Part shown: piece after piece, positions 16,332 through 49,967 of the stretch
Layout: each line of letters opens with the position of its first letter
How positions within the stretch are numbered: the stretch's first letter is position 1
Source of the DNA: a virus
Lineage: Duplodnaviria > Heunggongvirae > Uroviricota > Caudoviricetes
Length of the DNA: 64,000 nucleotides
IMG/VR virus record: IMGVR_UViG_3300028422_000873
Direction: 5' to 3' (one strand)
The notes under the pieces: generated by a model
Database searches by the model: none
Seen by the model: the letters and a program-made list of their open reading frames with translations, nothing else
What the model was told of the DNA's origin: nothing
Made by a program: the position numbers and the translations under genes

Positions 16332-16332
16332 T

Positions 16333-18162: not shown

Positions 18163-18804
18163 ATGGAGATTCAGAAAAAAGAAGAATCAAAGAAAAGAAA
18201 GAGAAGACCATATGCAGTGGTTCTTGACTACGATGATACATGTGTAGATTTCATCGGTTTCTTATGTACTCTACATAATCATTTACATGGGACCTGCATG
18301 ACGCGCCGCGATGTTGTAAACTGGTGTTTTAGTGATATCGATATGAAAGATGCGAGAGGGCATACCGTAACAGGTGCAGAATTCAACAGCACATTCAAAG
18401 AATGGGAAAACGACGGATTATATGCATCGTTGCCAGCACTGAAAGATGCTAGAAGAGCAATTGATCTAATGAAAACACTGGGTTACAAGGTTATTATATT
18501 AACAGCTAGAGATGAGAAGTATCGTAAACAGACAGAACTTAATGCTATGCATCAGCATTTAAAGTATGATGAATTACACTTCTCAAATGATAAAGTTAAG
18601 ACCATTCGTGAATTAAGTAAGGTCTATAACATAAAGATGTTTGCTGATGATAAGGCATCTACAGTTATATCTATTGCTGAGAAATGTAAAGTAAAACACG
18701 TTTTCTTGATTGATCAAGAGCATAACTCTGATATAGATGATGATGACATCGTAAGAGTTAAAGATATTATGGAGACGATACGTTATCTCCCGGATGTGTC
18801 TTAA
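18163..18804 (+). CDS. 5'(3')-deoxyribonucleotidase (NT5C family, HAD superfamily)
   Basis: VVLDYDDTCVDF is the HAD DxDx(T/V) motif I in NT5C-like context; ILTAR and FADDKAS downstream motifs. Confidence 0.5.
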   Translation: MEIQKKEESKKRKRRPYAVVLDYDDTCVDFIGFLCTLHNHLHGTCMTRRDVVNWCFSDIDMKDARGHTVTGAEFNSTFKEWENDGLYASLPALKDARRAIDLMKTLGYKVIILTARDEKYRKQTELNAMHQHLKYDELHFSNDKVKTIRELSKVYNIKMFADDKASTVISIAEKCKVKHVFLIDQEHNSDIDDDDIVRVKDIMETIRYLPDVS

Positions 18805-21137: not shown

Positions 21138-21688
21138 ACGTCGTAGTACTATTAGGTCCTCCTGGTTCTGGTAAATCTACTCATGCTAAGTTGTTAGCTA
21201 AGAATATCCCATCGTGTTCTTGGATGTCTATGGGTGATTTACTGCGTGATGAGATAGAATCTGGTAGTGAGATAGGTGAACAAATACAGCGTACAGTGGC
21301 AAACGGCGAACTAGTGCCAAATGATGTATGTTATAAGCTACTTGAACCGTTCTTTCTTAGTTCGTTGCGCGACACGTTTATAATAGATGGTTTTCCAAGA
21401 AGTCTTAATCAAGTTTCGATATTAGATGATTTCTGTATAAAACCTATTATCATAGAGATAAACTGTACTTACGAAATAGTACTTGACAGATTAACGCGCA
21501 GGTGCCGTGACGACGATACAGAAACTGTGATAAAACACAGATACGATGTATATACTTCTGATACTACAGAGGCGATAAAGAAAATGCGCAAAAAGTATAA
21601 AGTATATAAGGTATACGGCGGAGATGACATAGATGTCATTCATGAAAAAATACGCAAGATAATAGAGGAGAACAATGAAGATATATAA
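21134..21688 (+). CDS. nucleoside monophosphate kinase (adenylate/cytidylate kinase fold)
   Basis: P-loop GPPGSGKST; NMP-binding GDLLRDE; LID/CORE GFPRSLNQ; overlaps the upstream and downstream genes by 4 and 14 nt. Confidence 0.6.
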   Translation: MNVVVLLGPPGSGKSTHAKLLAKNIPSCSWMSMGDLLRDEIESGSEIGEQIQRTVANGELVPNDVCYKLLEPFFLSSLRDTFIIDGFPRSLNQVSILDDFCIKPIIIEINCTYEIVLDRLTRRCRDDDTETVIKHRYDVYTSDTTEAIKKMRKKYKVYKVYGGDDIDVIHEKIRKIIEENNEDI

Positions 21689-22493
21689 TAACATTCACGA
21701 CGCTTATTTAGGTACTTTAGCAGATGTATATGATAATCCTGAGTTTGAGTGTGCACCCAGAGGCCAGAAGATTAAAGAGTGTTTGGATTATCAATTTCGT
21801 GTACTGTGTCCAGAGGTAACTCCTATAATCACAAAAGATGAAGAAAGAAACAAAATTATAGCAGAATATACTGCTAAAGAAACAGCATTATACGACTCAT
21901 GCAGTAATAATGTTGAAGATTTTGCTAAAGCAAGTTCATTCTGGAGAAAAATAGCCAACAACGATGGCACTATTAACTCTGCATACGGCTATCTAATATG
22001 GAAAAATAATTCTTGCGGTGATCCTCTTCAAGAGCTGTCTTTTATAGATGATAGTGGGATTAATCCCAGAGTTATGGTTTTAAACTCGCTTACACAGACT
22101 GGTATGAAAGCCCACAGAGAATGTAAACGCACACCATGGGAATGGTGTGTTCAATCATTAAAGGCTGATAAAGATACAAGGCAGGCTCATTTAAAATTTA
22201 GTCTACCAGAGCATCTATGGATAGGTAACAAGGATCAAGTTTGCACATTACATGCTAACTTTCTGATACGTGATGATAAGTTGAATATGTCTGTAGTAAT
22301 GAGATCAAATGATCTTATGTTGGGTCTAGTATATGACCTACCTTGGTTTGTGAGCCTAATGGATAAGATGATCGATGAATTAAAAAGAGATTACCCAAGT
22401 CTAACAAAGGGACACTACACTCATACAGTTCACAGTATGCATATTTATGAACGCGATGAAGAAAAAGTCATGAAGATGCTTGGGAGAGTTTAA
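21675..22493 (+). CDS. thymidylate-synthase-family pyrimidine C5 transferase; Asp at the ThyA Asn177 position suggests a dCMP hydroxymethylase-like enzyme
   Basis: catalytic Cys context VCTLHANF (ThyA PCHALFQF); MRSNDLMLGLVYDLPWF aligns to ThyA QRSADVFLGVPFNIASY with N replaced by D, as in T4 dCMP hydroxymethylase. Confidence 0.6.
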   Translation: MKIYNNIHDAYLGTLADVYDNPEFECAPRGQKIKECLDYQFRVLCPEVTPIITKDEERNKIIAEYTAKETALYDSCSNNVEDFAKASSFWRKIANNDGTINSAYGYLIWKNNSCGDPLQELSFIDDSGINPRVMVLNSLTQTGMKAHRECKRTPWEWCVQSLKADKDTRQAHLKFSLPEHLWIGNKDQVCTLHANFLIRDDKLNMSVVMRSNDLMLGLVYDLPWFVSLMDKMIDELKRDYPSLTKGHYTHTVHSMHIYERDEEKVMKMLGRV

Positions 22494-26642: not shown

Positions 26643-27076
26643 CAAGACGTGAAAATCATAATTATAGAGGTGAAACTATAGTAGCGTGGTTAGAATACAT
26701 CAAGACGCATGATTTTAAAGTCGGTGATTATCTTGTAAAATATATACGCACAGGAAGAGCTTGGTCCATTGAGAAATTTAATGACTACAGCGATGATGAT
26801 GTGTTGAGAAAATATAAAGTAACATATAAGTGTGAATTAGGTATTCCATATGTTCAAAAAGTAAAAGTAGATGGTTCCCTATCTGAAGAGCAATTTCCTT
26901 TAGTAAATATAGACATTGATTATCATAGATATGAGATAGATCCAGATTTTGAAACATATATACTTCTAGGTAAAGAAGATGAATATGATCCACAAGCTAA
27001 ATGGAGGCAGCGTACTGTCGAACGGGCTGAAAAAAGAATTAAGACCATTAAAGAATCTCTTGGTAAAAATGAATGA
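26639..27076 (+). CDS. hypothetical protein, paralog of the 25863..26642 repeat domain
   Basis: ATGA start/stop overlap; DFKVGDYLVKYI...YEIDPDFETYILLGKEDEYDP. Confidence 0.45.
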   Translation: MTRRENHNYRGETIVAWLEYIKTHDFKVGDYLVKYIRTGRAWSIEKFNDYSDDDVLRKYKVTYKCELGIPYVQKVKVDGSLSEEQFPLVNIDIDYHRYEIDPDFETYILLGKEDEYDPQAKWRQRTVERAEKRIKTIKESLGKNE

Positions 27077-27399
27077 ATCAGATGATAATTAAGTGGAATT
27101 ATATAGAAAAAGCAGATAGTTTTGAAGAAGTATCAATGAATCTATATTGGTCTTTTAAAACAACTATATGCAATCATAATATAACCATGAATGCTTATAA
27201 TATAATGGGTGAGATTATATGGGAGGCTTTCATAGAATCAAATCGTAATAGATTATGGTACTCTTATTTACCAAGTTACGCAGAAATTAAAGGACAGACG
27301 GAAATGGAAAAGCGCATCATTGGTGGTTTGTTGATGGTTATATTCAGTAAGTTATCGCAGTATAAAACTGATTTCGGAGATGGAACAGGCTTATTATAA
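27073..27399 (+). CDS. hypothetical protein
   Basis: 108 aa; last plus-strand gene before the convergent terminator. Confidence 0.4.
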   Translation: MNQMIIKWNYIEKADSFEEVSMNLYWSFKTTICNHNITMNAYNIMGEIIWEAFIESNRNRLWYSYLPSYAEIKGQTEMEKRIIGGLLMVIFSKLSQYKTDFGDGTGLL

Positions 27400-27402
27400 A
27401 AA

Positions 27403-27422
27403 AGCCCTCCATTCGGAGGGCT
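27403..27422. terminator. bidirectional rho-independent terminator at the strand-switch point
   Basis: AGCCCTCC-ATTC-GGAGGGCT hairpin flanked by AAAAAA upstream and AATTAATT downstream, between convergent genes ending at 27399 and 27432. Confidence 0.7.
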
Positions 27423-27431
27423 AATTAATTC

Positions 27432-27614
27432 TTACTTTTCTTTTTTAATAGATTTCTTTTTCTTCTTTTGTACAGCCTCTTTAACCACTTCAATATCTTT
27501 CTCGTCAACAATTCCATCCTTGTTTACGTCAGCATCAACGATCTTTTTAACAACTGCTTTTTTCTCAAATTTAAGATTTTTTATTCTATTAATATTGTCT
27601 CTTCTATTACTCAT
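27432..27614 (-). CDS. small Lys-rich protein
   Basis: 60 aa. Confidence 0.3.
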   Translation of the reverse strand: MSNRRDNINRIKNLKFEKKAVVKKIVDADVNKDGIVDEKDIEVVKEAVQKKKKKSIKKEK

Positions 27615-36564: not shown

Positions 36565-38205
36565 TTATAATCTCCATTGACCGTTAATTACGTTAATTAA
36601 TTGTCTAGAACCGTTAGGGTATAAAAGACAAGCTGTATGCATCCAACTAGAAGCGCCTCTATTATATTCTAATTTTAAATATGTAGATGTACCTACACAC
36701 CAAGCACCTCTCAATATTTGAGGTGAATGAGAGTGGCCAAAAACACATTGACCATAGGCTTTTTCCATAGTGCGAATCGAACCACGTGCTCCATTAGCGC
36801 CTAAGTCACCGTGTGCCCCAAGAAAAACTCTAGCTATACTAAAATTATCATCACGTTTAAGCCAGCGAATTTTATCTGGTTTCTTTATGCCACCAACTAA
36901 CTCACAGGCTGCCCTCAATGGATCCTTTTTATCTAGGTATTCTAAAAATATTTTTGCTGCAAAACGAGCGTTCAAAGGGTCTTTTGGAAAATCACCCCTT
37001 TTTAAATATCTATCTAAGAATTCATCGTGGTTGCTTTTCACTATAACTAATTCATCGGTTAATGCACTTAACATATTGATATCATTAACAACACCTTTAG
37101 TTTCTTCTTCTAAATTCAATTCACCGGCTTCTGCTCTATTAGCTCTTAAGATGCAGTTATTATCTTCATGATGATTAATAGATAAATGATCAGCTAAATC
37201 ATGAACGACAATCTTATCTGGTTTTAACGTCTTAGCGATATCTTTCCAACAATCTGATACAACGGGATCTGTGGATCCTGAGTGCCAGTCTCCCAAAATG
37301 AATGCAGCTGGTGCATAATTTATAACAGTATCAGGAAAATATTGTTTACCGAGATCAACAAAATTTCCATCCTTATCTGCTTGTATTTGTCTAAAGTGAT
37401 ATACTTTATTATCAACGACTTCAACGATGATTGCTCCCATAACATGATCATGAGTTGCTATGACAGCAGTTCTTCTACTCATATACATTTCTGTGGTGTA
37501 ATCTGGAACTGTTATAGCGCCTGTGGTCATAACAGCATGTGTATGTTGATCATGTGTTGCCACATATTGCAATCTTTGTTTTGGTGAAGCATAAATAAAT
37601 CCACCATCTCTGTGCCCTATTCTATCCAATGACGTAATCGGGTCTATATGTTTAGCACTTAATTTAACTGTATTAAGATGAATATTTGAATTGAGACTAA
37701 CATCATCTACGACTAGACAATCTTGTATAGCTGGATCTACGAAAAAACCATCTTTATCATATGGTCTAGCAGGATCAGATGCTAGGAGTATTAGGAGTTT
37801 TGCGTCATTGATATTACAGTAGTTTTTTATACTAGCTAAAAAATTATTATCGGCAGGACAACCTGTTACAGCGGTAGTTACAACAAAACGTTTTGTATTT
37901 TTTATTTTAGTTCTAAGGGATGCTAATGCCCTAGGATTAAATATGGAATCGTCTAGAATGTGTTTAAATTTGTCTGGGAAACGTTTTCTGGCCGTTATCT
38001 TCAATCTACCGAGTGATCCATGATGATGAGCAACCATGTCTTTAGTTATTCCACTTGCATCTTTAAATTCTTGCATTGTAGGATAACCGCGTAGACTCTG
38101 ACATAGTGTAGCATACTTTTTAACAATTAATGCTTTTTTACTAATTGTCTTCTTTTTAGTAGTCTTCTTTTTAACTGTTTTCTTTTTAATTTGCTTCGTC
38201 ATCAT
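36565..38205 (-). CDS. calcineurin-like metallophosphoesterase with Lys-rich N-terminal tail
   Basis: start at MMTKQ (AGGAAG RBS); KKKTVKKKTTKKKTISKK tail; motifs GDWHSG, SNHDEF, GAHGD, GHSHSP. Confidence 0.55.
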   Translation of the reverse strand: MMTKQIKKKTVKKKTTKKKTISKKALIVKKYATLCQSLRGYPTMQEFKDASGITKDMVAHHHGSLGRLKITARKRFPDKFKHILDDSIFNPRALASLRTKIKNTKRFVVTTAVTGCPADNNFLASIKNYCNINDAKLLILLASDPARPYDKDGFFVDPAIQDCLVVDDVSLNSNIHLNTVKLSAKHIDPITSLDRIGHRDGGFIYASPKQRLQYVATHDQHTHAVMTTGAITVPDYTTEMYMSRRTAVIATHDHVMGAIIVEVVDNKVYHFRQIQADKDGNFVDLGKQYFPDTVINYAPAAFILGDWHSGSTDPVVSDCWKDIAKTLKPDKIVVHDLADHLSINHHEDNNCILRANRAEAGELNLEEETKGVVNDINMLSALTDELVIVKSNHDEFLDRYLKRGDFPKDPLNARFAAKIFLEYLDKKDPLRAACELVGGIKKPDKIRWLKRDDNFSIARVFLGAHGDLGANGARGSIRTMEKAYGQCVFGHSHSPQILRGAWCVGTSTYLKLEYNRGASSWMHTACLLYPNGSRQLINVINGQWRL

Positions 38206-38662
38206 CTTCTTCCTGTTTTCTTTTACGAGTTGTCCAACGATCATCTAAATGTGGACATTCTCGTTCAAACTCTATAAGCATAGCTATGTTAGCAATAGCA
38301 TGATCTAAGTGAGATAAACCTGATTCTGGATCAATATCCTCACCGTCCTGCCATGCCATCATGTGCCTTATAAGACATGCGTAAGGCACACTATAATTAA
38401 ACCCGCGTCTCCAATTATCTGAGTCATATTTGTTAGCTCCATAAGTTAATACTCTAGCTAAAGCATTTACTGCAGACACAGGAACTAGATCCATTCTCAA
38501 TTTACCGTGATTAAATCTTTGAGCTTTACCATCAACTTTATTAGAATTCTCTTGTACTTGTCCCCATTGATTAATTATATCAAAATCTGAGTTACCGCAT
38601 GTGCACGGTGCTGCTAGATCATTATTATATTCTTTACCGCACTTAATACAGCGAAACGTCAT
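38186..38662 (-). CDS. hypothetical protein with N-terminal CxxC zinc ribbon; possible all-alpha NTP pyrophosphohydrolase-like C-domain
   Basis: CIKCGKEY...CTCGNSD; ESGLSHLDHAIANIAMLIEFE resembles the MazG/dCTPase-type helix; weak. Confidence 0.35.
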   Translation of the reverse strand: MTFRCIKCGKEYNNDLAAPCTCGNSDFDIINQWGQVQENSNKVDGKAQRFNHGKLRMDLVPVSAVNALARVLTYGANKYDSDNWRRGFNYSVPYACLIRHMMAWQDGEDIDPESGLSHLDHAIANIAMLIEFERECPHLDDRWTTRKRKQEEDDDEAN

Positions 38663-39231: not shown

Positions 39232-40428
39232 CTATGTACTGTTCTTTAAGTATTTAAGCACCTCCGATGAAGATCCAGTAAATTTAGCTTTTTTACTTAA
39301 AGCTAAAATTCTTCTCCAGCGACTATATAAGCTTTTAGTTATTCTTCCACCTCTATTCAATATCTGCTGCTTAATTGTTAAAAAATCTCCAGTTATTGCT
39401 ATTAACTCTATATCGAATTGTTGTTCTGCTTGTTTCAAGAAACCTGTAATGTTAACAGTTGGATCGTAAACAGCGATCTTACCTTGCTCTATTTTTAGTA
39501 ATTTTTCTATGGGCGATTTCTTTTTATTTTTATCATAAGACACATAATGAAATTTATCAACTGGTAATTGATTACTGATCCAACTTTTACCACTACCGGA
39601 TACACCTATAATAACAATTAACTTAGGTTTACAATATCTCCAAATTCTTTTAGCTGCCGTTTTTTGCTTACCTTTAATATTCTTAACTATATTAGATGGA
39701 AAAACATTATAATGTGCAGCAGCATCCTTAATAGAGTTAAAAATTTCTCCAATATCATTAACTACTGCTTTTTGATGTCTTTCGTTGGCAGCTATTAATT
39801 TATTTTTAACTTCAGGACGCCGAAATGATGCTTTTACGCCGTCACTTACTCGTTTAAGATATTCAGGATCAGCGGACAATTCTTTTCCTATTTTACTCTG
39901 TCTTTGACGGTTTTCTTCTGATCTCCAATACTCCTTTTGCTTAATGGATTTATTAGCTCTATATATAGGGTCTTGCCAAGCTTTTGTAAAGCGTTTACTT
40001 CTCTCTTGTCGTAGTTCAGGTTTATCTTGAAATCTTTTCTTATGAGTATTACTCATCTTGTCTTTAGTTTCTTGGGGTAATTTAGTGCCCATTTTAGCAT
40101 CACTCATCTTCTGTTTACTCTCATCGGAGTACAGATTATTAAAGCCGCCAGATTTCAAGTTATAACCATTAGGGGTTAGTGATTGCTCCTTTTCAATATA
40201 TAATTCTTCTAAGATATTTAATTCTTCAATAGATGATGCAATGTGTATTTCTTCAATCTTAAAGTTATCAACTCCATATTTCGCTATTGCTCCATGGATA
40301 GCTGTTTTTTTCTTAGAATTACTAGCAGCACTGCGACAATGACCTTTCCAACGTCTCTTAAGTGTTTTAGTGGTTTGTCCAATATAAATCTTACCATTAG
40401 TTAAATTAGTAATACGATATATAATCAT
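39232..40428 (-). CDS. GIY-YIG homing endonuclease with NUMOD3 repeats fused to a C-terminal P-loop kinase-like domain
   Basis: IYRITNLTNGKIYIGQT...NGYNLKSGG (GIY-YIG); LSDESKQKMSDAKMG / LPQETKDKMSNTHK (NUMOD3); C-terminal VIIGVSGSGKSW...ILNRGGRITKSLYSRWRRIL resembles a polynucleotide-kinase-type P-loop. Confidence 0.7.
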   Translation of the reverse strand: MIIYRITNLTNGKIYIGQTTKTLKRRWKGHCRSAASNSKKKTAIHGAIAKYGVDNFKIEEIHIASSIEELNILEELYIEKEQSLTPNGYNLKSGGFNNLYSDESKQKMSDAKMGTKLPQETKDKMSNTHKKRFQDKPELRQERSKRFTKAWQDPIYRANKSIKQKEYWRSEENRQRQSKIGKELSADPEYLKRVSDGVKASFRRPEVKNKLIAANERHQKAVVNDIGEIFNSIKDAAAHYNVFPSNIVKNIKGKQKTAAKRIWRYCKPKLIVIIGVSGSGKSWISNQLPVDKFHYVSYDKNKKKSPIEKLLKIEQGKIAVYDPTVNITGFLKQAEQQFDIELIAITGDFLTIKQQILNRGGRITKSLYSRWRRILALSKKAKFTGSSSEVLKYLKNST

Positions 40429-40510
40429 GCAGTTTACTCCCTCTTCAAGAATATCTACATTAATTGTACCTATACATTAATTAAACAGTTAACCATACTA
40501 TGTAAAAAGT

Positions 40511-40540
40511 AAAAATAAAAAGGGTCACCTAAGTGACCCT
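40511..40540 (-). terminator. rho-independent terminator after the major capsid gene
   Basis: AGGGTCAC-CTAA-GTGACCCT hairpin; on the minus strand it is followed by TTTTTATTTTT. Confidence 0.75.
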
Positions 40541-40568
40541 CATTTTTTAATAATTTTAAGTACTTAGA

Positions 40569-42020
40569 TTATCTACCAACGTTTTGGAATACACAGTTGA
40601 ACCTTGGAGTATACACAAAAAGTGCACCGTAAAGAACAATCGCGAATTCAAGTGCAGTACTTACAATTGCAAAATTTATTTTGGAGAGCGGAGCCAACTG
40701 CTTGAATCTCAAACATTCAGAACTCATATCCAAAAGGAATGCCTCACCGAGACCAGGAGCTTTCGCACCAGCATCTACATAAGTAGTACCAGATAGTCTA
40801 TAGTTAGCAACGAATTCTTCTGTACCAATAGCACCACCAGCAGCAGATCTATATACTCTGATATATTTCGTGTTAGCAGGGATATTAGAAAGAGTCAAAG
40901 TAACAACTTGACCAGCAGTTACAGCAACACCACCTGATTCTTGAATTGGTGCAGATTCACCAAAGTCATTCACGAATGTAACTTTGTATTGAATAGTACC
41001 AACAGGTAGATTACCACCAGAACCACCAGCAGCAGCAGAAACAGCTGCAGATCCCAATACAGGAGCATTTGCGTTAACAGCTCTTGCTCTAGCAGTTGAT
41101 CTTGGTCTCAAGAAAAGATTTGGTTTGAAATCAACTTGACCAGCAGATGTAGTCATTTTGTTAACATCATAACCAACAGTTTGAGAGGCCATACCAGGAG
41201 CACTTCTGAATTGAGGATAGAATTGTTTGATGAAAGAAGATAGAGCTAGAGGCTCAATATGCAATTCACTTGGAGAACCAAAGTTTTCCAAAGCAATTAC
41301 TGCTAAATCTTCAATATCATCTTGAGCGATAACGTTACCGTCAAGATCTTGAACAATTGATCTCCACTCACCGAATCCAGCAAAGTCTCCAGATCTATGT
41401 TGATCGTCGTCGTCACCTTTTAGAATTTGTTGTAGAAGGCCATTCATAGCAATTGAGTTGCTAGGAAGATCAGAGAGTGCGCCGTTCATAGCACCAGTTG
41501 CAATATTAGCAAAGTGTGCATGTCCCCAATACATTTCTCTTTCAAGATGCTTAAGAAGGTGCATTGTTCCTTCTTTAGCTTGTTGAGCTACAACATCACC
41601 AACAGTTGTACGGACAAGGGTCATTTGATGAGAAACTTTTCTTCTTGTTCCGAAGAAAACGATTCTTTGTCCGTCACGGATGTATGTAGAATCCTCTTCT
41701 TGAGGTGCTCCACCTTCTCCCATGTAAGGACTAGCATCAGAACCATATCCAACAAGACGGTTGTATTGTTCAAATAGGTTGTACGCTTTGTCGACAGATA
41801 CCGCAGGCCAAAACTTGAGGTTTTTCATGTCGAACGTTACTGATTTTAGTGTAGATTCTAGTGATTCAGCTTGAAGTACACCACCATAAGTTAGATCAGT
41901 CGGTTTTCCGGCTCCACCGTAACCAGCTGTGATCGCCTTATTAAGTGCTTCTACTTCTTCTGGAGACACTAGACCTTGATTTAAACCATTTACGATTTGA
42001 TTAATCATGTCATTTTCCAT
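40569..42020 (-). CDS. major capsid protein
   Basis: 483 aa; sits after the scaffold and protease-like genes and before a strong terminator; Gly/Ala/Thr-rich; ATTTTCCATTTC upstream with GGAG RBS. Confidence 0.6.
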   Translation of the reverse strand: MENDMINQIVNGLNQGLVSPEEVEALNKAITAGYGGAGKPTDLTYGGVLQAESLESTLKSVTFDMKNLKFWPAVSVDKAYNLFEQYNRLVGYGSDASPYMGEGGAPQEEDSTYIRDGQRIVFFGTRRKVSHQMTLVRTTVGDVVAQQAKEGTMHLLKHLEREMYWGHAHFANIATGAMNGALSDLPSNSIAMNGLLQQILKGDDDDQHRSGDFAGFGEWRSIVQDLDGNVIAQDDIEDLAVIALENFGSPSELHIEPLALSSFIKQFYPQFRSAPGMASQTVGYDVNKMTTSAGQVDFKPNLFLRPRSTARARAVNANAPVLGSAAVSAAAGGSGGNLPVGTIQYKVTFVNDFGESAPIQESGGVAVTAGQVVTLTLSNIPANTKYIRVYRSAAGGAIGTEEFVANYRLSGTTYVDAGAKAPGLGEAFLLDMSSECLRFKQLAPLSKINFAIVSTALEFAIVLYGALFVYTPRFNCVFQNVGR

Positions 42021-42046
42021 TTCTTTTTCTCCTTAAAGTTAACTTT

Positions 42047-42760
42047 TTACAAGTTATATTTTTCAGCGATTGACTGTACATCGGCAGCTGAACCAGTTTC
42101 TACTCTGATAATATCAGCAGTATCTACAGCAGTCCCCGACTTTTTCAGTTCAAATAGTTTATTTGCCACATCTGACTTAGATAATGGCTCAGCTTCTTCT
42201 TCATCTGATTTTTGTAGAGCGTGAAATTGACCAGCGGGAATACCTTTTCTCTCTACAGGTTGATCATTAATAGAATCAATCATGTCAGTTAGTGAAGCAA
42301 TTTTCTTTTCTAATGAGTCAAATTTAGAGTCGATATAAGATTTAATTAGACTCTCTTGTTCTTCAAGAGATTTCTTCAATAGATCTTCGCTCTTTTGAAG
42401 ATCATCTTGCTCTTCATCGGATTTTTCAACTTCTTTATCGTCATCATCGTCGTCTTTGTCGTCGTTATCGTCGTCGTCATCTTTATCTTCTGCTTTTTCA
42501 CAGTCAGATTTTTCAGCTTCGTCGTTAACGCCTTTTTCAACTTCATCCTTGTCGTCTTCGTCGTCATCGTCTTCTTTGTCTTCTGCTTTCTTAGCGTCCA
42601 ACTCACCATTTGCGGGTTTGCCAGCGAGTTCTTTGTCGCCAGGACCTTCAATTTTAATCTCGGCCGCAGAAAACTTAGATTTCTTCAACTCTTCAAGTTC
42701 TTCAAGAGTTTCATCAATGAGACTAACAAGAGATTTTGTTAATTCATCATTTTTTTCCAT
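42047..42760 (-). CDS. acidic coiled-coil scaffolding protein
   Basis: 237 aa; poly-Asp/Glu tracts (DDDDEDDKDE, DKDDDDDNDDKDDDDDD); directly upstream of the capsid gene. Confidence 0.5.
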   Translation of the reverse strand: MEKNDELTKSLVSLIDETLEELEELKKSKFSAAEIKIEGPGDKELAGKPANGELDAKKAEDKEDDDDEDDKDEVEKGVNDEAEKSDCEKAEDKDDDDDNDDKDDDDDDKEVEKSDEEQDDLQKSEDLLKKSLEEQESLIKSYIDSKFDSLEKKIASLTDMIDSINDQPVERKGIPAGQFHALQKSDEEEAEPLSKSDVANKLFELKKSGTAVDTADIIRVETGSAADVQSIAEKYNL

Positions 42761-42788
42761 CTCAGTCTCCTTTTAGATTAGATTAAAA

Positions 42789-43190
42789 TTATTGTCCCAT
42801 TCCTAACATTTCAACATCAAAGATTACATCTTCATCATAAGATGCATCACTGTTTTCTAGTTGAACTAGTCCACCTTGTGAAAAGTCAGCACAAGCTGTC
42901 AATACACGCATTGCTACAAGTCCGTCAACTACGTCAACGTAAGTACCTGCTGTGTTAATTGCACTCTTGATTTTCAAAACACCAGGGTTGGCTACTTCTG
43001 TAAGACCTAAGAAAGGCGCAGATCCACCAAAACTTCCACCCATAGGATTTTGAATGCTAGCTTCAACATAAGAAATCGTAAGATCGTTACTTCCATTATC
43101 AACAACTACATCATCACCACTACGTGTTACTGTTAGTCCTAGAAGTTCGAGCTTACGAGCAATTTTGTCCATTCTTGCTACTTTAGCCAT
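42789..43190 (-). CDS. hypothetical head-module protein
   Basis: 133 aa. Confidence 0.4.
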   Translation of the reverse strand: MAKVARMDKIARKLELLGLTVTRSGDDVVVDNGSNDLTISYVEASIQNPMGGSFGGSAPFLGLTEVANPGVLKIKSAINTAGTYVDVVDGLVAMRVLTACADFSQGGLVQLENSDASYDEDVIFDVEMLGMGQ

Positions 43191-43320
43191 TTCATTCTCC
43201 TTATTCGTTCTGTTATTAGAACCGTTTGTTACTTTTTATAACAGTTCAGTATATTACTATACCATATATGCTTACCTAAACATAAGTAAGTACATCAGTA
43301 TTACAATATAATTATACCTG

Positions 43321-44889
43321 TTACTTTGCTATTAACTTATAAAGATCTTTAAGAGAAAAGTTTTTACTACAATCTCTGCATTTTACCTGATTTTTATGAT
43401 ATATCTGCTCTTTACCACAGTTTTTACAAGTTATATATTGAAAACCCTCTTTTTTATTATTATCTTCTAAGCTTTCAGATTGAATAACTGCCCCACCAGT
43501 AGCATCAGTTGGAGAACCAGAGCCACCATAACCAGCATATAATGCCTTAGTTATTTCTTTATTTTTAAGTTTTTTTGCTCGATCTAATCGTTCTTTTAAT
43601 GTGGGTTTACGATAAGCACCTTTAGGATCAATGGGTTTTCTTACATCCCATTCAATCTTTTTTTCACTATGTGGGATTACTTTTTCTTGAGGAACAGGCT
43701 CTTTAATTGCGGATTTCGGTGTAGTTTCAGGTGTCTTACCAATATTCTGAGCTGCAACAGCTAATGCTGCTGTACCTGCTAACCCAGTCAGTGCTCTTCT
43801 TATTTCACCTTTTTCAATATCACCTTCGTCTTTTTCTAGATGCTGTGATATTCTATCAACCATTAAATTAATGCGCTTATTATCAATGCCTTTATCCGTT
43901 AACTGCTGGCGTAAATTATCTAAATACTTAGGATCCTTATTTGCCCTATTTGCATGAATTTTAAAGGTATTTGTGGCTTTAACTTGACGTGCACTCTGTA
44001 CGGGCGTAATATCTTTTCCAGGCCCTGGAGGCGTAGTTAATATACCACTTGGTTTTTTAACTTGAGCAGTAGCAAAACGTTTTGCTCTTACAGCTTCTGT
44101 CAATTTATCGCCGTTGAACTGTTTCATCAAGTTATTGATTTTCTTAACATTGTTTAAGATTTTTGCTTCTAATGCACTTTTTATAAGTTGTTCAGGGTTA
44201 GTTTCTTCTATTGTTATATTTATTCCAGTGGCTTTAGCTAACTCTTTTATTTTCTCAATATTATTGATAATTCTTGATGCTTGGGCATTTCTTTGAACAT
44301 GTCTGAATGATGGAACATTTTCTTCTGCAAGATGCATTACACTTTTTATAAGTTCTTGATCTACCGCATCTTGTTCCTGATCTATGGATTTCTCCATATG
44401 AAGCGGTTCAATAAGTGTGGCTTTATTAGCAGGCGTAAAGGTAATCGCTATAGAGTGAATTTTAGTTCTTTCAAGGCGTGATGGATCTTTAATTCCGCGA
44501 CTTATAACACCACCTTCTACAGAGGCTTTAATCTTAAGTGGGCAATCTGATTTATGAATATTTCTTAGAATCGCAGCAGCGGCTTTAGCATTAGGGTGGT
44601 CTTCATCATTATATAGATAACCTGCAGCATAAATATAAGGAGCTTTAATTTGTTCCCAGTAGTATCTATGACGATCATTTTCACAATCTTCAGCTTTAAA
44701 GATCTTTTTTGCTTCAGTTACACGACCTATGCTGTTAAAAAAACCTTTACCGTGATTATCATTCCAGCGACCTCTACCAGCTTCTAGATCAGATATATCA
44801 GCACCCTCTACTGATAGAGTTTCACCTTGTGAATCACGTAATTCACTTCCAGCAACCCCGTCTATCCATAATGCCGTATCTTTTGCCAT
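43321..44889 (-). CDS. prohead protease / scaffold-like head maturation protein (candidate) with C-terminal zinc ribbon
   Basis: 522 aa between portal and scaffold; central coiled-coil; C-terminal CKNCGKE...CRDCSK; contains ITKALYAGYGGSGSPTDATGGAVIQSESLED, nearly identical to a segment of the capsid N-terminus. Confidence 0.35.
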   Translation of the reverse strand: MAKDTALWIDGVAGSELRDSQGETLSVEGADISDLEAGRGRWNDNHGKGFFNSIGRVTEAKKIFKAEDCENDRHRYYWEQIKAPYIYAAGYLYNDEDHPNAKAAAAILRNIHKSDCPLKIKASVEGGVISRGIKDPSRLERTKIHSIAITFTPANKATLIEPLHMEKSIDQEQDAVDQELIKSVMHLAEENVPSFRHVQRNAQASRIINNIEKIKELAKATGINITIEETNPEQLIKSALEAKILNNVKKINNLMKQFNGDKLTEAVRAKRFATAQVKKPSGILTTPPGPGKDITPVQSARQVKATNTFKIHANRANKDPKYLDNLRQQLTDKGIDNKRINLMVDRISQHLEKDEGDIEKGEIRRALTGLAGTAALAVAAQNIGKTPETTPKSAIKEPVPQEKVIPHSEKKIEWDVRKPIDPKGAYRKPTLKERLDRAKKLKNKEITKALYAGYGGSGSPTDATGGAVIQSESLEDNNKKEGFQYITCKNCGKEQIYHKNQVKCRDCSKNFSLKDLYKLIAK

Positions 44890-44922
44890 ATAATACTCCT
44901 ATTCATAGAATATTATACCAGA

Positions 44923-46011
44923 TTATAACTTTAGATTGCGTAAGTAATCATATACTTCTTCTGCAGTACCACTATAATTACTATAATTACTACGAATTGA
45001 AAGCATTCTATTAAATCTACTAATAATGGCGTTTTCGTTAGATGTTCCTCCACGGGCTGTAATTCTCTCAATAACAACATCTGGGGATTCAACTATGAGA
45101 ACTAAATGAATATCGTATTTATCACAATAGCGATTATAAACAGTAGATATATTAGTAGGAATATCAAGTAATATGGGCTTTTCATTATAATAATTATTAC
45201 GTATAATTTTATCTAAATCTTTGATGTTTATTTTATCATAAGAAATAACAGTAAATTTATCGTTTAAATTATTCGCTATTGTAGTTTTACCAACCCCAAA
45301 TTGACCTGCCAACATATAAAATTTTCTAGGTTTATAATTACCTTGATATTTATTCATCTTATCAAGATTTTGCCATGCCCACATTGGCTGCAAATTATTA
45401 AGCGACCAGCATTCTTTAAATTCAACATCTGTTGCACTTTTATAAGTAAACCAACTATCTGGTTTAATATGATCTATTTGCCACTCACCATAATTATCCC
45501 AAGACATACCTTCTTGGAATTGAGATTCAAGGTGGTTATGTAGATCCTTTATGGAATATTGTAGAGCATCATGTATCATCTGATTCTGTTGATCAATGCT
45601 GTATTTAATAATATTATGGCGCAATGCACTCATTATGAAATTACGAAGTTTCAATTGATGTCCACTAGTTGCAAAACCATCAAAATCCTCAACTTTAATT
45701 CCTCTTTTTTGACAGCTCTTTTCAATTCGTTTCTTTAATAATGCCTCCTTATGCTCTTCACTTAATTTTTTACCCTTCTTTGCTTTAGAGATTTTATCTC
45801 CCCAAGTAATATCTCGACCTTTAGATGAAGTGTTGTATATTCCAGCTTCTGCAGCACATTTACGGCACATCTGATGGCGACGACACCATTTAACCCAACG
45901 ATAACCGTGTGGACATTCAACTTTAACCTTAATATTAGAATTTTCTTTGAGTTGATCAACTGAAATTAATTGACCTCTATACATAACTTTTTGAGTGATT
46001 ATTTTATTCAT
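44923..46011 (-). CDS. HNH homing endonuclease with NUMOD motif fused to a C-terminal P-loop kinase-like domain
   Basis: GEWQIDHIKPDSWF...NLQPMWAWQN (HNH); LSEEHKEALLKKRIEK (NUMOD3-like); C-terminal LAGQFGVGKTT...ITARGGTSNENAIISRFNRML homologous to the C-terminal domain of 39232..40428. Confidence 0.65.
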   Translation of the reverse strand: MNKIITQKVMYRGQLISVDQLKENSNIKVKVECPHGYRWVKWCRRHQMCRKCAAEAGIYNTSSKGRDITWGDKISKAKKGKKLSEEHKEALLKKRIEKSCQKRGIKVEDFDGFATSGHQLKLRNFIMSALRHNIIKYSIDQQNQMIHDALQYSIKDLHNHLESQFQEGMSWDNYGEWQIDHIKPDSWFTYKSATDVEFKECWSLNNLQPMWAWQNLDKMNKYQGNYKPRKFYMLAGQFGVGKTTIANNLNDKFTVISYDKINIKDLDKIIRNNYYNEKPILLDIPTNISTVYNRYCDKYDIHLVLIVESPDVVIERITARGGTSNENAIISRFNRMLSIRSNYSNYSGTAEEVYDYLRNLKL

Positions 46012-46489: not shown

Positions 46490-47131
46490 TTATTTATTAC
46501 AGTTTTCGCAGCATGTGGTTTCACAAGCTTCATTGTCATCTGCATGACATTCACAGCAACATCCAGGCTCATCACTAACTAATTCTAATTTAGCAGGGAG
46601 CTCTCTGATGCCGATAATTTCAACATTATGAATAACACCATTAATATCAGCTTGAAATTTATCGCCAACTTTTTTACCAATCATATCATTTTTCATCGCT
46701 TCATATGGTATCTGTACAACAGGAATTTTAGATCTAAAGATACCTTGATCAACATCGGTATCAGTCGTAGAACTAATAATAACAATACTTTCTTCTTTAA
46801 CTACATCTCCAATTGTATAACCTTTTTCAACGTCTTCTTTATCAGATGCCTCATTATAATCTTTTAATTTCAATTTATCTGCTTCCGCATCCAAAGCGTT
46901 AGTATCGATATTCATAAGGTTAATCATTGCTAATGTTCTATATTGAAGATCATTAGCTAAATTCAAACTATTAGCAGCATCTTGACGCATCATCTCAACT
47001 TGACTCATAAGTTGTTTAACCATCATTTGACTAATATTCAGTGCCATTTGAACATTCTTAAAGTCAACCTCTAATTGTCTAATGCGGTCTTTTGTTGTAG
47101 GTGCCTTACTTTTTTTGAATCCATTACTCAT
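46490..47131 (-). CDS. hypothetical protein with Cys-rich C-terminus
   Basis: 213 aa; C-terminal CCCECHADDNEACETTCCENCNK. Confidence 0.45.
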   Translation of the reverse strand: MSNGFKKSKAPTTKDRIRQLEVDFKNVQMALNISQMMVKQLMSQVEMMRQDAANSLNLANDLQYRTLAMINLMNIDTNALDAEADKLKLKDYNEASDKEDVEKGYTIGDVVKEESIVIISSTTDTDVDQGIFRSKIPVVQIPYEAMKNDMIGKKVGDKFQADINGVIHNVEIIGIRELPAKLELVSDEPGCCCECHADDNEACETTCCENCNK

Positions 47132-47976
47132 TTTTGCTCCTTCTGTTTCTCTAATATTCGTTGTGCATATAATTTAAGAACAATTTTTTCTTGTTCGGTA
47201 AAATCATCATTATCATCATCTACACCAAATATTCTACTTAATTTATCCTGTAGAAAGTCTCGTATATCAGTTTCAAGCGAATCGAATGTGTCACCTCTAC
47301 GTTTTATTATACGTGAGGATAAAAGTGCATTGATTGCATTGGCTGTCTCTAACTTAATCTGCTGTGGAGTTTTTATCACACTAGCGTGCTGAGAATCATT
47401 AATGTGTAAGGATTCTTTATTATCTGCAATTTCCACATCGTTATTAATAGATTCTCTTGTATCTTCTGAGACACTCTCTTCTTTTTTAGTAATAAAATCT
47501 GTTACCTCTTTAAGCTCTGTTAATTGTTTCTTAACAAAGCCATTGTTCTCTAATCTTTCGTACATAGCAACAGCATGATTAAACTGCCCAAGTGTTAAAG
47601 GTTCATTATTAGTTACACACCTGTTCCAATGAGCATCGTAATCCTGATCCCACATTAATATATATTCAGTGCCATTCTGCTCTTCAAAGTCTCTTAGAAT
47701 TTCAAAGTCTTCATATGATAACTGTGAATTGCGACCATATACAGCTGGCCAAACTTTTTCTCCATATATCGAACGATCAAAAATTACATTTAAACCATCA
47801 CATTGAGTATATAATTCCAATATTTCATCGACATAACCTGGCCCAGTATAACCTTTTTCTCTATATTTTTTATCAGGGGCTTCCATATGAATATAATGGA
47901 AACCTTTATTTTTATAAAATTCTGCTACTGACGTTTTACCAGAACGATCAAGACCCTCTAATATAATCCAACTCAT
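47128..47976 (-). CDS. P-loop nucleotide kinase (dTMP/dNMP-kinase-like N-domain) with an extra C-terminal domain
   Basis: start at MSWIILEG (AGGAGG RBS); ILEGLDRSGKTS matches the thymidylate/deoxynucleotide kinase Walker A. Confidence 0.5.
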   Translation of the reverse strand: MSWIILEGLDRSGKTSVAEFYKNKGFHYIHMEAPDKKYREKGYTGPGYVDEILELYTQCDGLNVIFDRSIYGEKVWPAVYGRNSQLSYEDFEILRDFEEQNGTEYILMWDQDYDAHWNRCVTNNEPLTLGQFNHAVAMYERLENNGFVKKQLTELKEVTDFITKKEESVSEDTRESINNDVEIADNKESLHINDSQHASVIKTPQQIKLETANAINALLSSRIIKRRGDTFDSLETDIRDFLQDKLSRIFGVDDDNDDFTEQEKIVLKLYAQRILEKQKEQK

Positions 47977-48010
47977 TATTCCTCCTGTCAAGATAATTAT
48001 ACTAAAAGCA

Positions 48011-48040
48011 TAAAATAAAAAGGCCACTAAGTGGCCTTTT
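48011..48040 (-). terminator. rho-independent terminator after the portal gene
   Basis: AGGCCAC-TAA-GTGGCCT hairpin flanked by A- and T-tracts on both sides. Confidence 0.65.
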
Positions 48041-48062: not shown

Positions 48063-49967
48063 TTATTCGATATTTAAGGGGTTTTTAATTGGTTTGCCAT
48101 CCACGTATTGAGCCTTATTTGCACCAAATTTAGCGGATTGTTCCCTCATTGATTCACGTCCAGCTTGAACAGCAGAGTGTGCTTGTGCTATTTCATTAGC
48201 ACTTTGTTCTGCCTGATGAGCTTCTTCTTGCCTTTGTTGTTCTTGCTCTGCGTGTTCCATTTCTTTAGCCTGCATATCCATTTGCTCTTGTTGCATTTTT
48301 TCTGCTTTCTTTTGAGCCTCTAATGCTGACAACATCTGCTGCCAACTCATAAAAGCAGGATCACCAGGAAAGTATTGGAGTTCTTTTCTTTCAGTGGCCC
48401 CCTTATCTTTAAAGAAGAATTCTCTGATTTCACCTTTAGTTAGATTCTTCTCTACTAGGGCCCAAAAAGCATTATTCATTGGAAGATCACCAATTGGATG
48501 CTTTAAACGTTCTTTACGGGCTGCATCTAATAAATCATTCATAGATTTATGAACAGTCATTTCAGCCTGCAATAACGCTACTTCAGTTTGAGGTGTTTCA
48601 TCTGTGTATCCTTCAAATTGAAAGCGATATTTCTTAGCAAGATCTTTATCGATCATTGGTAAAATATCTTGATTAATCATGTCCTCAATAAAAACTAAAA
48701 TTGGATATAAACCTCTTTCACGAGAGTATTCTATCTTCTGCTTAGGTCCTTGTTGACCAGCTGAAGTAGCTCTTCCTGTACCAGTGGTTAAAAAATCCAT
48801 ACCTAACTCAATAGGATCAATTTGGAACTGAGTGCATATTGCTCTCATTAAATGCATATTATAATTAATATATTCCATATCGCGTGCACTACCGGTCATA
48901 GGAATCCAACTCACTTCATCGAGACCTGCAACTATAGGGGTTCTCCAGGCGTTTTGTGTTCCACTGATAGAATTATAAAATTGACGTCTAAACGCTGTAA
49001 GTTGAGATTGAGTTACTGTCCCCTTTAAATGCAATAATCCACGAGCTGCATAACCGTGTGTAAAGAAGTTAGAGTTATAGTTCTCAGAGTTAAGATGATT
49101 AGTGATATTAATGATGGCTAACTCTAATGGACCATAACAGTAACCCATTGAATCTGCAAAGTTTTGAGGATTAAATAGCTTGAAAATCATATCCTCATCG
49201 CCGAATACAGCTAAAGTTTGTCCTTCATAAGAGGTCTGAACATATTTGAATTTATCTATATCCGCCTCATTAATCTCCTGACCTTTTCTAGGATCATTGT
49301 CTGATATGGGAGTATACATCTTCCTTGCTGAATCTTGTTCTGCCTGTACTTGTTTTTTAGACATATTCTTATTAATTAGAAAAACTTGTTCTGCAGGAAG
49401 CGGTCTAAAACGATGAAGAGATTTTTTCCTAGTTTGAATTTTCTCTACAGAAACATAACCAAAAGTAAGGGCGTCTCTCACAATAAGTTTTAAGAAATCA
49501 CCGAATAGCATCTTATCGTTTTCTGGAACATTGTCTTCACGTCCACAGTTGTATATAAAGGCTTCTAAGTCAGCTATCTCTTTTTTATCTATATCTGTAT
49601 ACTCATGATTATCATCCCGTTTAACAATTCGATATCCACTATTAAATTTCTTCTTCTGCGGTCTACTAAAGGCTGTTAATGTGTCAACCCTTATTTGAAT
49701 AATAGAAGAAACCAGCCAATCTCTTAAAGAGACATTTTTTAAAGTTTTATTAGTTAAACGAGAAGTTTTATGTTTTACAATTGTAGCTGTATTTTGATTT
49801 TGAAAGAAAGGATCTTCGATTATTGCCTTGCGTCCTATACTATCAGAATCGTTAGTAGTTTCCATAGGAACTTCTGGCACATTGTCGGCATCAGCCTTCA
49901 TAAGTTTATCAATTTCAGCTTGTTGTTTTTTGACTAGATATTCGCCAAATTTATCAAATAACCCCAT
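48063..49967 (-). CDS. portal protein
   Basis: 634 aa directly downstream of terminase large subunit; size and position typical of a myovirus portal. Confidence 0.55.
   Translation of the reverse strand: MGLFDKFGEYLVKKQQAEIDKLMKADADNVPEVPMETTNDSDSIGRKAIIEDPFFQNQNTATIVKHKTSRLTNKTLKNVSLRDWLVSSIIQIRVDTLTAFSRPQKKKFNSGYRIVKRDDNHEYTDIDKKEIADLEAFIYNCGREDNVPENDKMLFGDFLKLIVRDALTFGYVSVEKIQTRKKSLHRFRPLPAEQVFLINKNMSKKQVQAEQDSARKMYTPISDNDPRKGQEINEADIDKFKYVQTSYEGQTLAVFGDEDMIFKLFNPQNFADSMGYCYGPLELAIINITNHLNSENYNSNFFTHGYAARGLLHLKGTVTQSQLTAFRRQFYNSISGTQNAWRTPIVAGLDEVSWIPMTGSARDMEYINYNMHLMRAICTQFQIDPIELGMDFLTTGTGRATSAGQQGPKQKIEYSRERGLYPILVFIEDMINQDILPMIDKDLAKKYRFQFEGYTDETPQTEVALLQAEMTVHKSMNDLLDAARKERLKHPIGDLPMNNAFWALVEKNLTKGEIREFFFKDKGATERKELQYFPGDPAFMSWQQMLSALEAQKKAEKMQQEQMDMQAKEMEHAEQEQQRQEEAHQAEQSANEIAQAHSAVQAGRESMREQSAKFGANKAQYVDGKPIKNPLNIE

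Follow-up and report, generated by a model that had tools for sequence, protein, structure and literature searches.

Homing endonucleases are textbook two-part enzymes in which a nuclease is joined to a DNA-binding module. Free-standing phage representatives of the GIY-YIG (I-TevI, Seg), HNH (I-HmuI, Mob) and EndoVII (F-CphI) types are the closest described counterparts of two genes that we analyse here, in a 64,000-nucleotide stretch of a Caudoviricetes virus (IMG/VR record IMGVR_UViG_3300028422_000873; this whole stretch is called the window below). Like these enzymes, the GIY-YIG product in particular has a complete nuclease and NUMOD or helix-turn-helix (HTH) architecture, and both genes lie between conserved genes, one of them directly past the capsid terminator, with presence/absence polymorphism among relatives. 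Unlike them, the two proteins have an extra catalytic-type P-loop domain, which follows the DNA-binding end here and precedes it in other members of the family. An earlier note, made from the letters of this DNA alone, had called such a kinase-like appendage unexpected, and we agree: neither full-text literature searches (of incomplete coverage) nor the surveys of the His-Me and GIY-YIG superfamilies describe a kinase or P-loop partner on a homing endonuclease. For the extra domain itself, two described groups offer a comparison. In the Mucor RNA 5'-OH kinase an Asp is essential and two lid Arg residues touch the nucleotide base and the phosphates (PMC11571804), while the 5-hydroxymethyldeoxyuridine (5-hmdU) DNA kinases of phages (M6 gp54, ViI gp67/gp243 and SP10 gp186) are small P-loop kinases that phosphorylate a hydroxyl on polymeric DNA (PMC8989533).

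Both open reading frames (ORFs) lie on the minus strand with exactly the boundaries first proposed for them (Table 1). The gene calls are identical in an independent assembly of the same phage (Logan SRR7216773, locus L017), and protein P0005 is identical to the GIY-YIG product. The GIY-YIG nuclease is securely recognized by Pfam and by the NCBIfam model TIGR01453 'group I intron endonuclease', which covers residues 3-255 with 91.7 bits against a cut-off of 56. NUMOD3 itself is borderline in Pfam (19.6 bits, cut-off 20.4), yet the NUMOD-type region claimed for this ORF is borne out by the span of TIGR01453 together with an I-HmuI NUMOD-like match at residues 229-258. With TIGR01453 spanning residues 3-255, nothing of the nuclease and DNA-binding parts is missing from the protein ahead of the extra domain, which starts near residue 266.

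The second protein, of 362 amino acids, had been described as HNH plus NUMOD, and only the former part of this description has support. Pfam finds no HNH domain in the window protein itself, and its HNH region has no sequence match in the PDB. The motif W-x-DH-x-P ... N-x-QP ... N-x-x-K is invariant between the window protein and 10 homologues, five of the 11 aligned sequences give weak Pfam matches to HNH_4, HNH or GmrSD_C (E 0.002-0.007 for HNH_4/HNH), and phrog_1035 'endonuclease VII' matches the window protein with E 6e-7. On this motif and these weak profiles we accept the product as HNH-type. No NUMOD profile reaches even E ≤ 1; by eye, a NUMOD3-like stretch (residues ~69-95) and a CxxC-type, Zn-ribbon-like N-terminus can be made out. 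Homologues of this protein include P0007, which is 58% identical, and P0009, which has lost the HNH core (about residues 120-226) by a precise deletion flanked by two short similar stretches, KLRNFIM and KPRKFYM, and which retains the Zn-ribbon N-terminus and an intact P-loop. The nuclease halves of both window proteins appear to be ordinary members of known homing endonuclease families.

The C-terminal homology reported between the two proteins holds in pairwise alignment rather than vanishing in it: residues 267-396 of the GIY-YIG protein and 227-359 of the HNH protein are 31% identical over 135 columns (BLASTP, E 6e-12). The motifs quoted for the two domains are real, with their order swapped; GVGKTT..., ITARGG and RFNRMLSIRSN belong to the HNH ORF and GSGKSW..., ILNRGG and RWRRILALSKK to the GIY-YIG ORF. 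These are the only two copies of the domain in the whole window (tblastn). A recent duplication within the genome was considered as their source and rejected, given the 31% identity and the placement of the copies in separate subclades, one marked by GKTT and found with elements ahead of the protease gene, the other by GKSW and found with elements behind the capsid gene.

A word-indexed protein search with the two window domains returned three proteins and made the family seem rare, until an exhaustive HMMER scan of 1.84 billion cluster representatives recovered 463 of them at E ≤ 1e-3 and 285 at E ≤ 1e-10. Existing annotation hardly touches this family. Pfam offers AAA_22, AAA_18, Zeta_toxin and AAA_33 only, all below threshold for the window proteins (Zeta_toxin 16.9 bits against a cut-off of 22.3, AAA_33 12.8 against 27), with some other members reaching E 1e-8 for Zeta_toxin and 5e-7 for AAA_33. 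No NCBIfam model reaches its cut-off for the domain, PADLOC gives no defence-system match, and PHROGs gives only weak matches, to a family of unknown function and to guanylate kinase. Among GenBank phages (50,697 records), tblastn with the P-loop domain of the GIY-YIG copy and with the stand-alone member P0060 found no match. The domain represents a new, unannotated and uncurated family, minimal in size (~135 amino acids), with a P-loop kinase fold and widespread in metagenomic phages.

To describe the active site we used 288 aligned domains of roughly 20-60% pairwise identity, 94 of them fused (proteins of at least 230 amino acids) and 194 stand-alone. The Walker A Lys is conserved in 287 of the 288 and its Ser/Thr in all; the Asp after strand 2 (D34) in 286; an Asp or Glu after strand 3 (D/E57) in 279; the second lid Arg (R94) in all; and a further Arg (R105) in 272. 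The first lid position is Arg in 260 domains and Gln in 26. Fused and stand-alone domains share this pattern. A degenerate module without a functional Walker A or B, which the earlier note had raised as the finding that would undo its proposal, is not what these near-invariant catalytic-type residues describe, and the domain is very probably an active phosphotransferase or NTPase.

The fold agrees with this assignment. An AlphaFold2 model built from a 78-sequence alignment (pLDDT 95.7, pTM 0.89) has five strands and six helices, arranged as the five-stranded parallel sheet with flanking helices and a helical lid that is expected of a P-loop kinase, and the window copies present the Walker A motifs GVSGSGKS and GQFGVGKT. 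A single-sequence AlphaFold run on the full GIY-YIG protein gave no usable model (pLDDT 47.5). The earlier suggestion that the domain resembles NTP-binding domains of the polynucleotide-kinase type is supported by this model and by a sequence-profile search of the PDB, whose top matches are the Mucorales stand-alone RNA 5'-OH polynucleotide kinases 9drz (E 6.5e-10) and 9d8a (E 1e-7). The HMMER alignment to the 9drz family matches three elements: the P-loop GxGK[ST], the Asp that is invariant behind strand 2, and the lid segment R-x-x-x-R-x-G. D299 and D259 of the window proteins align with the 9drz Asp, a position common to other hydroxyl kinases and so not unique to polynucleotide kinases. 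Further profile matches are gluconate kinase (E 8e-9), which ranks next-best if two P-loop-only matches to multi-domain adenylate-kinase-repeat proteins are left aside, Clostridium thermocellum Pnkp (1.2e-5), T4 Pnk (8e-5) and Pnkp1 (1.3e-3). The Foldseek list is led by guanylate kinases and also contains mammalian PNKP, and the viral structure library BFVD holds no close relative (best E 7.7e-6 at 21% identity). Sequence comparison thus places the family in the hydroxyl-acceptor clade of P-loop kinases, with polynucleotide kinase as the single best match and others near.

Comparison with the nearest enzymes shows where the family departs from each of them. With the 5'-OH polynucleotide kinases (Mucorales KIN 9drz/9d8a, C. 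thermocellum Pnkp 4gp6, T4 Pnk 1ly1/1ltq) it shares the P-loop, the Asp after strand 2 and the RxxxR lid, but it is smaller (~133-140 residues against 150-208), it has a far shorter insert separating the Asp from strand 3, the acceptor-phosphate Arg has no conserved counterpart, and it has no phosphatase or ligase partner domain, being joined to DNA endonucleases rather than to RNA-repair modules. Since that Arg is missing and no curated threshold is reached, we do not file the family as a member of the polynucleotide kinases. The Asp after strand 2 and the RxxxR lid are likewise shared with the gluconate/shikimate kinase, AAA_33 and Zeta-toxin group, from which the family differs by having neither a substrate-binding subdomain nor an antitoxin-like partner and by its phage and nuclease contexts. 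The 5-hmdU DNA kinases have, by inspection, a similar lid motif (R-x3-R-x-G-K-P-I) and an Asp after strand 2; hhalign against M6 gp54 gives a probability of 46% (E 2e-4) over 54 columns that cover the lid region only. Nothing resembling an amino-acid:DNA transferase appeared among the scanned ORFs of the window, which is a fraction of the genome and was scanned without a search aimed at that enzyme.

The charge of the domain and the length of one segment bear on what it acts on. It is basic, with a median isoelectric point (pI) of 9.4 in fused and 9.0 in stand-alone members and a pI of 10.1 and net charge of +16 in the GIY-YIG copy. In the model only about 20 residues, forming one helix, separate the catalytic Asp from strand 3, and the substrate-binding subdomains of small-molecule kinases are longer than that. 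So short a segment can hardly enclose a pocket for a small molecule, and together with the charge it suggests that the substrate is a nucleic acid. That the acceptor is specifically a polynucleotide 5'-OH is a tentative assignment, to which we give slightly less than an even chance.

The domain is highly modular. The earlier note had proposed to look for it standing alone in other genomes, and in a set made up of the 150 best representatives and both window proteins we counted 79 stand-alone forms (~130-200 amino acids), 63 C-terminal fusions, nine N-terminal fusions and two tandem forms; stand-alone forms are also the majority among 325 family matches. In the 73 fused members the Pfam partners are GIY-YIG (15), HNH families (about 10) and Phage_endo_I of the PD-(D/E)XK type (5), accompanied by NUMOD3, I-HmuI-like modules and many HTH domains. 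The P-loop domain is therefore common to at least three nuclease superfamilies and occurs at either end of the protein. A split form exists as well, in which a GIY-YIG plus NUMOD3 gene is followed by a stand-alone P-loop gene in four IMG/VR loci (L104-L107, Table 1): the P-loop start overlaps the nuclease stop in L105 and L107, an 8-nucleotide gap separates the two in L104, and a 72-codon ORF lies between them in L106. Fused and stand-alone subfamilies can be told apart by D-P and RGG in the former and E-x and REG in the latter. In two metagenomic proteins, P0004 and P0006, an HNH domain precedes a tandem pair of P-loop domains, an arrangement that fits the insertion of a new nuclease-P-loop element ahead of an older P-loop copy. 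Loci L040 and L094 were taken up as nuclease-less truncated derivatives and then dropped: their GIY-YIG part is in frame upstream and had been missed by ATG-only calling, with one in-frame stop inside the motif in L094.

Stand-alone P-loop genes occupy varied positions: one separates the terminase-like gene from the portal gene in an SU10-like podophage (L010), one lies in a tail module and one in a replication region. A further one, P0003 (L001:780-1339, Logan SRR30224723), lies between scaffold-like and capsid-like genes and ends in MSPSEWRDFNRK, while the scaffold-like gene upstream of it ends in MTPQEWRDFNRK. In the EWRDFNRK core that the two share, four of the eight codons differ and all of the changes are synonymous, so both tail copies seem to be under selection. 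Two origins are conceivable for the P0003 tail: the footprint of an insertion whose target was recoded, or a tail borrowed for binding to the coat. A duplicated C-terminus of the upstream gene was looked for in the two window proteins as well, and none was found. As a separate observation, many stand-alone members (P0060, P0061, P0135, P0152, P0155 and P0172) have a short C-terminal [MF]PWE tail, and in L014:1552-2180, L100:3143-5438 and L102:4572-5344 the tail echoes the C-terminus of the upstream ORF (FPWE*, SYPWTK*, GGQQ*).

The behaviour of the two genes can be read from relatives. IMG/VR contains at least 80 of them, on contigs of up to ~175 kb and with capsid proteins 66-81% identical to that of the window, and the gene order portal - C - D - E - protease - H - scaffold - capsid is conserved in 80 loci (L018-L097). 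ORFs in these loci were called from ATG only, so that some lengths are underestimated, and nucleases outside the Pfam runs were typed by regular expressions. In total the loci hold 22 P-loop ORFs. After removal of duplicate maps, a P-loop ORF stands directly after the capsid gene in 19 of 69 loci and directly before the protease gene in two, and these are the same two positions that are occupied in the window. By contrast, at least 29 nuclease-like ORFs without a P-loop are found at portal|C, D|E, E|protease, protease|H and other junctions, and only three of them directly after the capsid gene. The association of the P-loop with the post-capsid and pre-protease sites has a Fisher's exact p of 9e-9, a value that overstates independence since the loci are related. 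The post-capsid elements mix nuclease types (five Phage_endo_I by Pfam, three to nine HNH-type by motif or Pfam, and GIY-YIG by tblastn to the window protein), yet their P-loop parts fall into a single loose cluster with 33-44% identity to the copy in the window GIY-YIG protein. Ahead of the protease gene, the three copies (window, L030 and L046) are orthologous HNH elements with P-loops 44-57% identical.

Relatives that lack the insertions, a comparison which the earlier note had recommended, show empty sites at both positions. When the empty loci L018 and L019 are aligned with the occupied L021, homology runs through the 3' end of the capsid gene and the terminator and then breaks, which identifies the complete nuclease plus P-loop ORF as the inserted unit. 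At the empty pre-protease site of L024 and L037, genes E and protease (G) adjoin, 33-58 nucleotides apart. As the empty sites hold no P-loop and the whole ORF is the insert, the P-loop was not a resident gene beside which endonucleases had landed. The proposal of homing sites around the head genes is thereby supported: the two ORFs behave as free-standing homing endonuclease genes of different nuclease classes, inserted independently at two hot spots and polymorphic for presence.

These observations lead us to favour, with somewhat better than even confidence, a picture in which homing endonuclease genes carry a hydroxyl kinase directed at nucleic acid as a passenger. Mechanistically, the P-loop domain would be an NTP-dependent phosphotransferase acting on a nucleic-acid hydroxyl, with a reaction of the 5'-OH polynucleotide-kinase type as the leading candidate and phosphorylation of a DNA-base hydroxymethyl group as the alternative. 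GIY-YIG, HNH and PD-(D/E)XK nucleases all leave 5'-phosphate and 3'-OH ends, so a 5'-kinase would have no task on the products of its own endonuclease and would not be acting on them. It would instead benefit the phage, for example by healing the ends of damaged nucleic acid or by modifying nucleic acid; the endonuclease would spread the kinase, and selection on the kinase would keep the ORF alive after the nuclease had decayed. Such a passenger appears to be the most economical model because nuclease products offer no 5'-OH and because stand-alone and nuclease-less forms are abundant. The HNH-core deletion in P0009, the split form and the stand-alone P0003 support independent selection on the P-loop domain. 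Several points weigh against this picture. No curated model reaches its cut-off for the domain. The fold search is not specific, with gluconate, dephospho-CoA, guanylate and adenylate kinases scoring alike, and the gluconate kinase E-value indicates that what the sequences match is the hydroxyl-kinase clade as a whole. In T4 Pnk and C. thermocellum Pnkp a basic residue just after the catalytic Asp (T4 R38 type) binds the first phosphodiester of the acceptor; in our family no Arg or Lys column is conserved within five residues after D34, the window copies having Lys at +1 only, and the GIY-YIG copy has Gln (Q355) in place of the first lid Arg. A 5'-kinase would, moreover, seem to have no obvious use beside nucleases that leave 5'-phosphates. 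The window also encodes a homologue of RtcB, an enzyme that ligates 5'-OH ends to 3'-phosphates, and a 5'-kinase made by this phage would therefore be a competitor of the ligase and no help to it. Finally, the association with two sites is not predicted by a pure passenger model and hints at a role in homing or in head-gene expression or assembly.

That last point is the natural starting place for the idea that the kinase is integral to homing, which we regard as unlikely though not negligible. The kinase could act on the target DNA, for instance through phosphorylation of an end or of a modified base close to the cut, through a block on simple religation or through marking or immunising DNA, or NTP binding could control the nuclease, in either case making the protein a bifunctional enzyme. 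Repeated fusion to three nuclease classes in both orientations, together with the conserved two-gene split, is a classic sign of functional coupling; P-loop elements are concentrated at two sites while nuclease-like ORFs lacking the domain are scattered elsewhere, and the P-loop subtypes group by site and not by nuclease. The strongly basic domain fits as well, and its weak lid resemblance to M6 gp54 and the thymidylate-synthase-like gene of the window leave room for a DNA-base substrate; a DNA-base kinase like the 5-hmdU enzymes would be one specific form of this idea. If the kinase worked on a DNA end or a hydroxymethylated base, a possibility to which we assign the same modest weight, it might bias repair in favour of copying the element, protect the genome of the element or set which sites can be colonised. 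Against any integral role, the domain stands alone more often than it is fused, including in genes far from any nuclease gene; the nuclease parts seem complete without it (TIGR01453); established nuclease chemistry provides no 5'-OH to phosphorylate; and since the three pre-protease copies are orthologous, the correlation with site is partly shared descent. A small-molecule, nucleoside or nucleotide kinase of the gluconate-, dephospho-CoA- or nucleoside-kinase type, carried as auxiliary metabolic cargo, is more doubtful still. It would account for gluconate kinase as the next-best profile match, for the guanylate kinases at the top of Foldseek and for the automatic JGI names among the 325 matches (dephospho-CoA, gluconate, uridine and adenylate kinase). 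Those names are mutually inconsistent and none is at a curated cut-off, and the basic character of the family, its physical linkage to DNA-binding nucleases and the Asp-strand 3 segment, shorter than the substrate-binding subdomains of those enzymes in general, all argue the other way.

The remaining explanations account for fewer of the observations. The domain may be head-associated or packaged, or may target its carrier protein there, so as to be loaded into procapsids and to act on incoming or competing nucleic acid after injection. Its genes do cluster in head modules (post-capsid and pre-protease here, scaffold-capsid in L001, terminase-portal in L010), P0003 shares a synonymously recoded end with its scaffold-like neighbour, and scaffold C-termini are typically the coat-binding element. 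We nevertheless consider this improbable, as a tail of this kind is absent from the window proteins, other stand-alone copies are encoded in tail or replication modules, and the duplicated tail is equally explained as an insertion footprint in the 3' end of the scaffold gene. The P-loop gene could alternatively be a resident phage gene targeted by homing endonuclease genes, with the fusions as incidental read-throughs. It is common for one conserved gene to be the target of several endonuclease families, which together with the stand-alone majority and the tandem P-loops of P0004 and P0006, reminiscent of an element landing before an older copy, speaks for such a history; yet the empty sites in the clade of the window hold no P-loop gene and the whole fused ORF is the insert, fused forms, about half of the best 150 representatives, are too common to be accidental, the two subfamilies are distinct in sequence (D-P and RGG when fused, E-x and REG when stand-alone), and the window copies, 31% identical, sit at separate loci. 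We rate it a shade below the packaged form. Least probable is a P-loop relic that has degenerated and lost catalysis, its only role being to bind DNA or to contribute structure: the sub-threshold curated kinase models and the Gln at the first lid position of the GIY-YIG copy would suit it, whereas catalytic-type residues near-invariant across 288 diverged domains and a confident canonical kinase fold would not.

The surroundings of the two genes agree with their proposed placement around the head genes. Reading along the minus strand, the order is portal, three small ORFs, the HNH-P-loop gene, the protease-like gene, a 133-codon ORF, the ORF in scaffold position, capsid, hairpin and the GIY-YIG-P-loop gene, so that the two endonuclease genes do bracket the scaffold/capsid block (Table 1). 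The GIY-YIG gene begins 92 nucleotides downstream of the post-capsid hairpin and has its own ribosome-binding site, GAGGGAG. The capsid protein is ~31% identical to SPO1-type capsid proteins and megablast of the region against the GenBank phages gave no nucleotide match; the phage is an uncultured, myovirus-like one with a distantly SPO1-like capsid. Some protease genes in relatives (L035, L036, L038, L039 and L084) have ~930-990 codons, about double the normal size, which points to insertions in frame or to fusions. Many relatives also keep the gene for the 559-amino-acid 'DNA transfer protein' downstream of their capsid region. Elsewhere in the window, the thymidylate-synthase-like and dTMP-kinase-like proteins could mean a modified pyrimidine in the DNA, and the phosphatase, phosphoesterase, dGTP_diPhyd_N-type and SPFH/Band 7 genes are accessories of nucleotide metabolism and membrane. 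At about 27000-27600 the GC and AT skews change sign, with plus-strand genes running to 27399 and minus-strand genes from 27625; this is a transcription boundary, divergent or convergent, between early/metabolic and structural modules.

Table 1. Coordinates of the features discussed, in the window unless a related locus is named.
Feature	Coordinates	Strand	Basis
GIY-YIG homing endonuclease gene, free-standing, 398 amino acids: GIY-YIG nuclease, NUMOD3/I-HmuI-like DNA-binding region, C-terminal P-loop kinase-like domain	39232..40428	-	ORF, Pfam, TIGR01453, phrog_314 homing endonuclease 6.6e-41
GIY-YIG catalytic domain, residues 2-90	40159..40425	-	Pfam PF01541 E 9.2e-13, 48.7 bits vs cut-off 22.6
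DNA-binding region of GIY-YIG protein, residues ~101-258, NUMOD3-type repeats and I-HmuI NUMOD-like helix-turn-helix	39655..40128	-	NUMOD3, PF22083 residues 229-258, TIGR01453, phrog_314
P-loop kinase-like domain copy 1, residues 266-398 of GIY-YIG protein	39235..39633	-	predicted K281/S282, D299, D322 (Walker-B-like), lid Q355...R359, R370
HNH-type homing endonuclease gene, free-standing, 362 amino acids: Zn-ribbon/NUMOD3-like N-terminus, HNH-type core, C-terminal P-loop kinase-like domain	44923..46011	-	ORF, phrog_1035 6e-7, phrog_28061 3e-9
HNH (His-Me finger) core motif, residues ~169-218: W177, D180-H181, N206, N215, K218	45358..45507	-	invariant columns of 11-sequence alignment
P-loop kinase-like domain copy 2, residues 226-362 of HNH protein	44926..45336	-	pairwise BLASTP; conserved columns; predicted K242/T243, D259, D283, lid R316...R320, R332
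Portal	48063-49967	-	PF04860 in L017
Head maturation protease-like ORF, 522 amino acids, right flank of pre-protease hot spot	43321..44889	-	phrog_1028 4.3e-9, conserved gene order
Acidic, coiled-coil-like 237-amino-acid ORF in scaffold position	42047..42760	-	sequence composition, conserved position in 80 relatives
Major capsid protein, 483 amino acids, left flank of post-capsid hot spot	40569..42020	-	phrog_752 8.8e-62
Strong intrinsic-terminator-like hairpin and T-run directly after capsid gene	40520..40541	-	
559-amino-acid protein, metallophosphoesterase-like core	36565-38244	-	phrog_1745 'DNA transfer protein' 4.9e-98
dGTP_diPhyd_N-type protein	38186-38662	-	Pfam label from L017
299-amino-acid protein, dTMP-kinase-like P-loop N-terminus	47128-48027	-	
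Divergent thymidylate-synthase-like protein	21675-22493	+	57 bits, far below NCBIfam equivalog cut-offs
HAD/NT5C-like phosphatase	18163-18804	+	
Calcineurin-like phosphoesterase	16288-16965	+	
RtcB RNA ligase homologue	8160-9257	+	Pfam 1.6e-63
SPFH/Band 7 protein	958-2073	+	
Split form, nuclease gene and P-loop gene	L104:3288-4389		
Split form, nuclease gene and P-loop gene	L105:4168-5411		
Split form, nuclease gene and P-loop gene	L106:3777-5411		
Split form, nuclease gene and P-loop gene	L107:307-1547		

Taken globally, what appears to be new in this locus is the combination of homing endonuclease genes that have acquired an added, widely shared catalytic-type module with a kinase family that had escaped annotation. 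Three nuclease superfamilies exchange a third module whose active site is intact, and this module persists alone as well. At ~135 residues it is among the smallest P-loop phosphotransferases, and its members may serve as compact end- or base-modifying enzymes. If the kinase is part of homing, it would add a new enzymatic step to gene conversion, and a bifunctional enzyme, if true, would explain the monopoly of P-loop elements on the sites beside the capsid and protease genes and define a new mechanistic class of homing element. As a beneficial passenger, should it be one, the kinase would offer a tangible example of an enzyme disseminated among phages by selfish endonuclease genes, and the enzyme in turn would shield the element from the decay and loss through which such elements usually cycle. 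The two capsid-side hot spots, with their many empty and occupied alleles, make this question directly testable.

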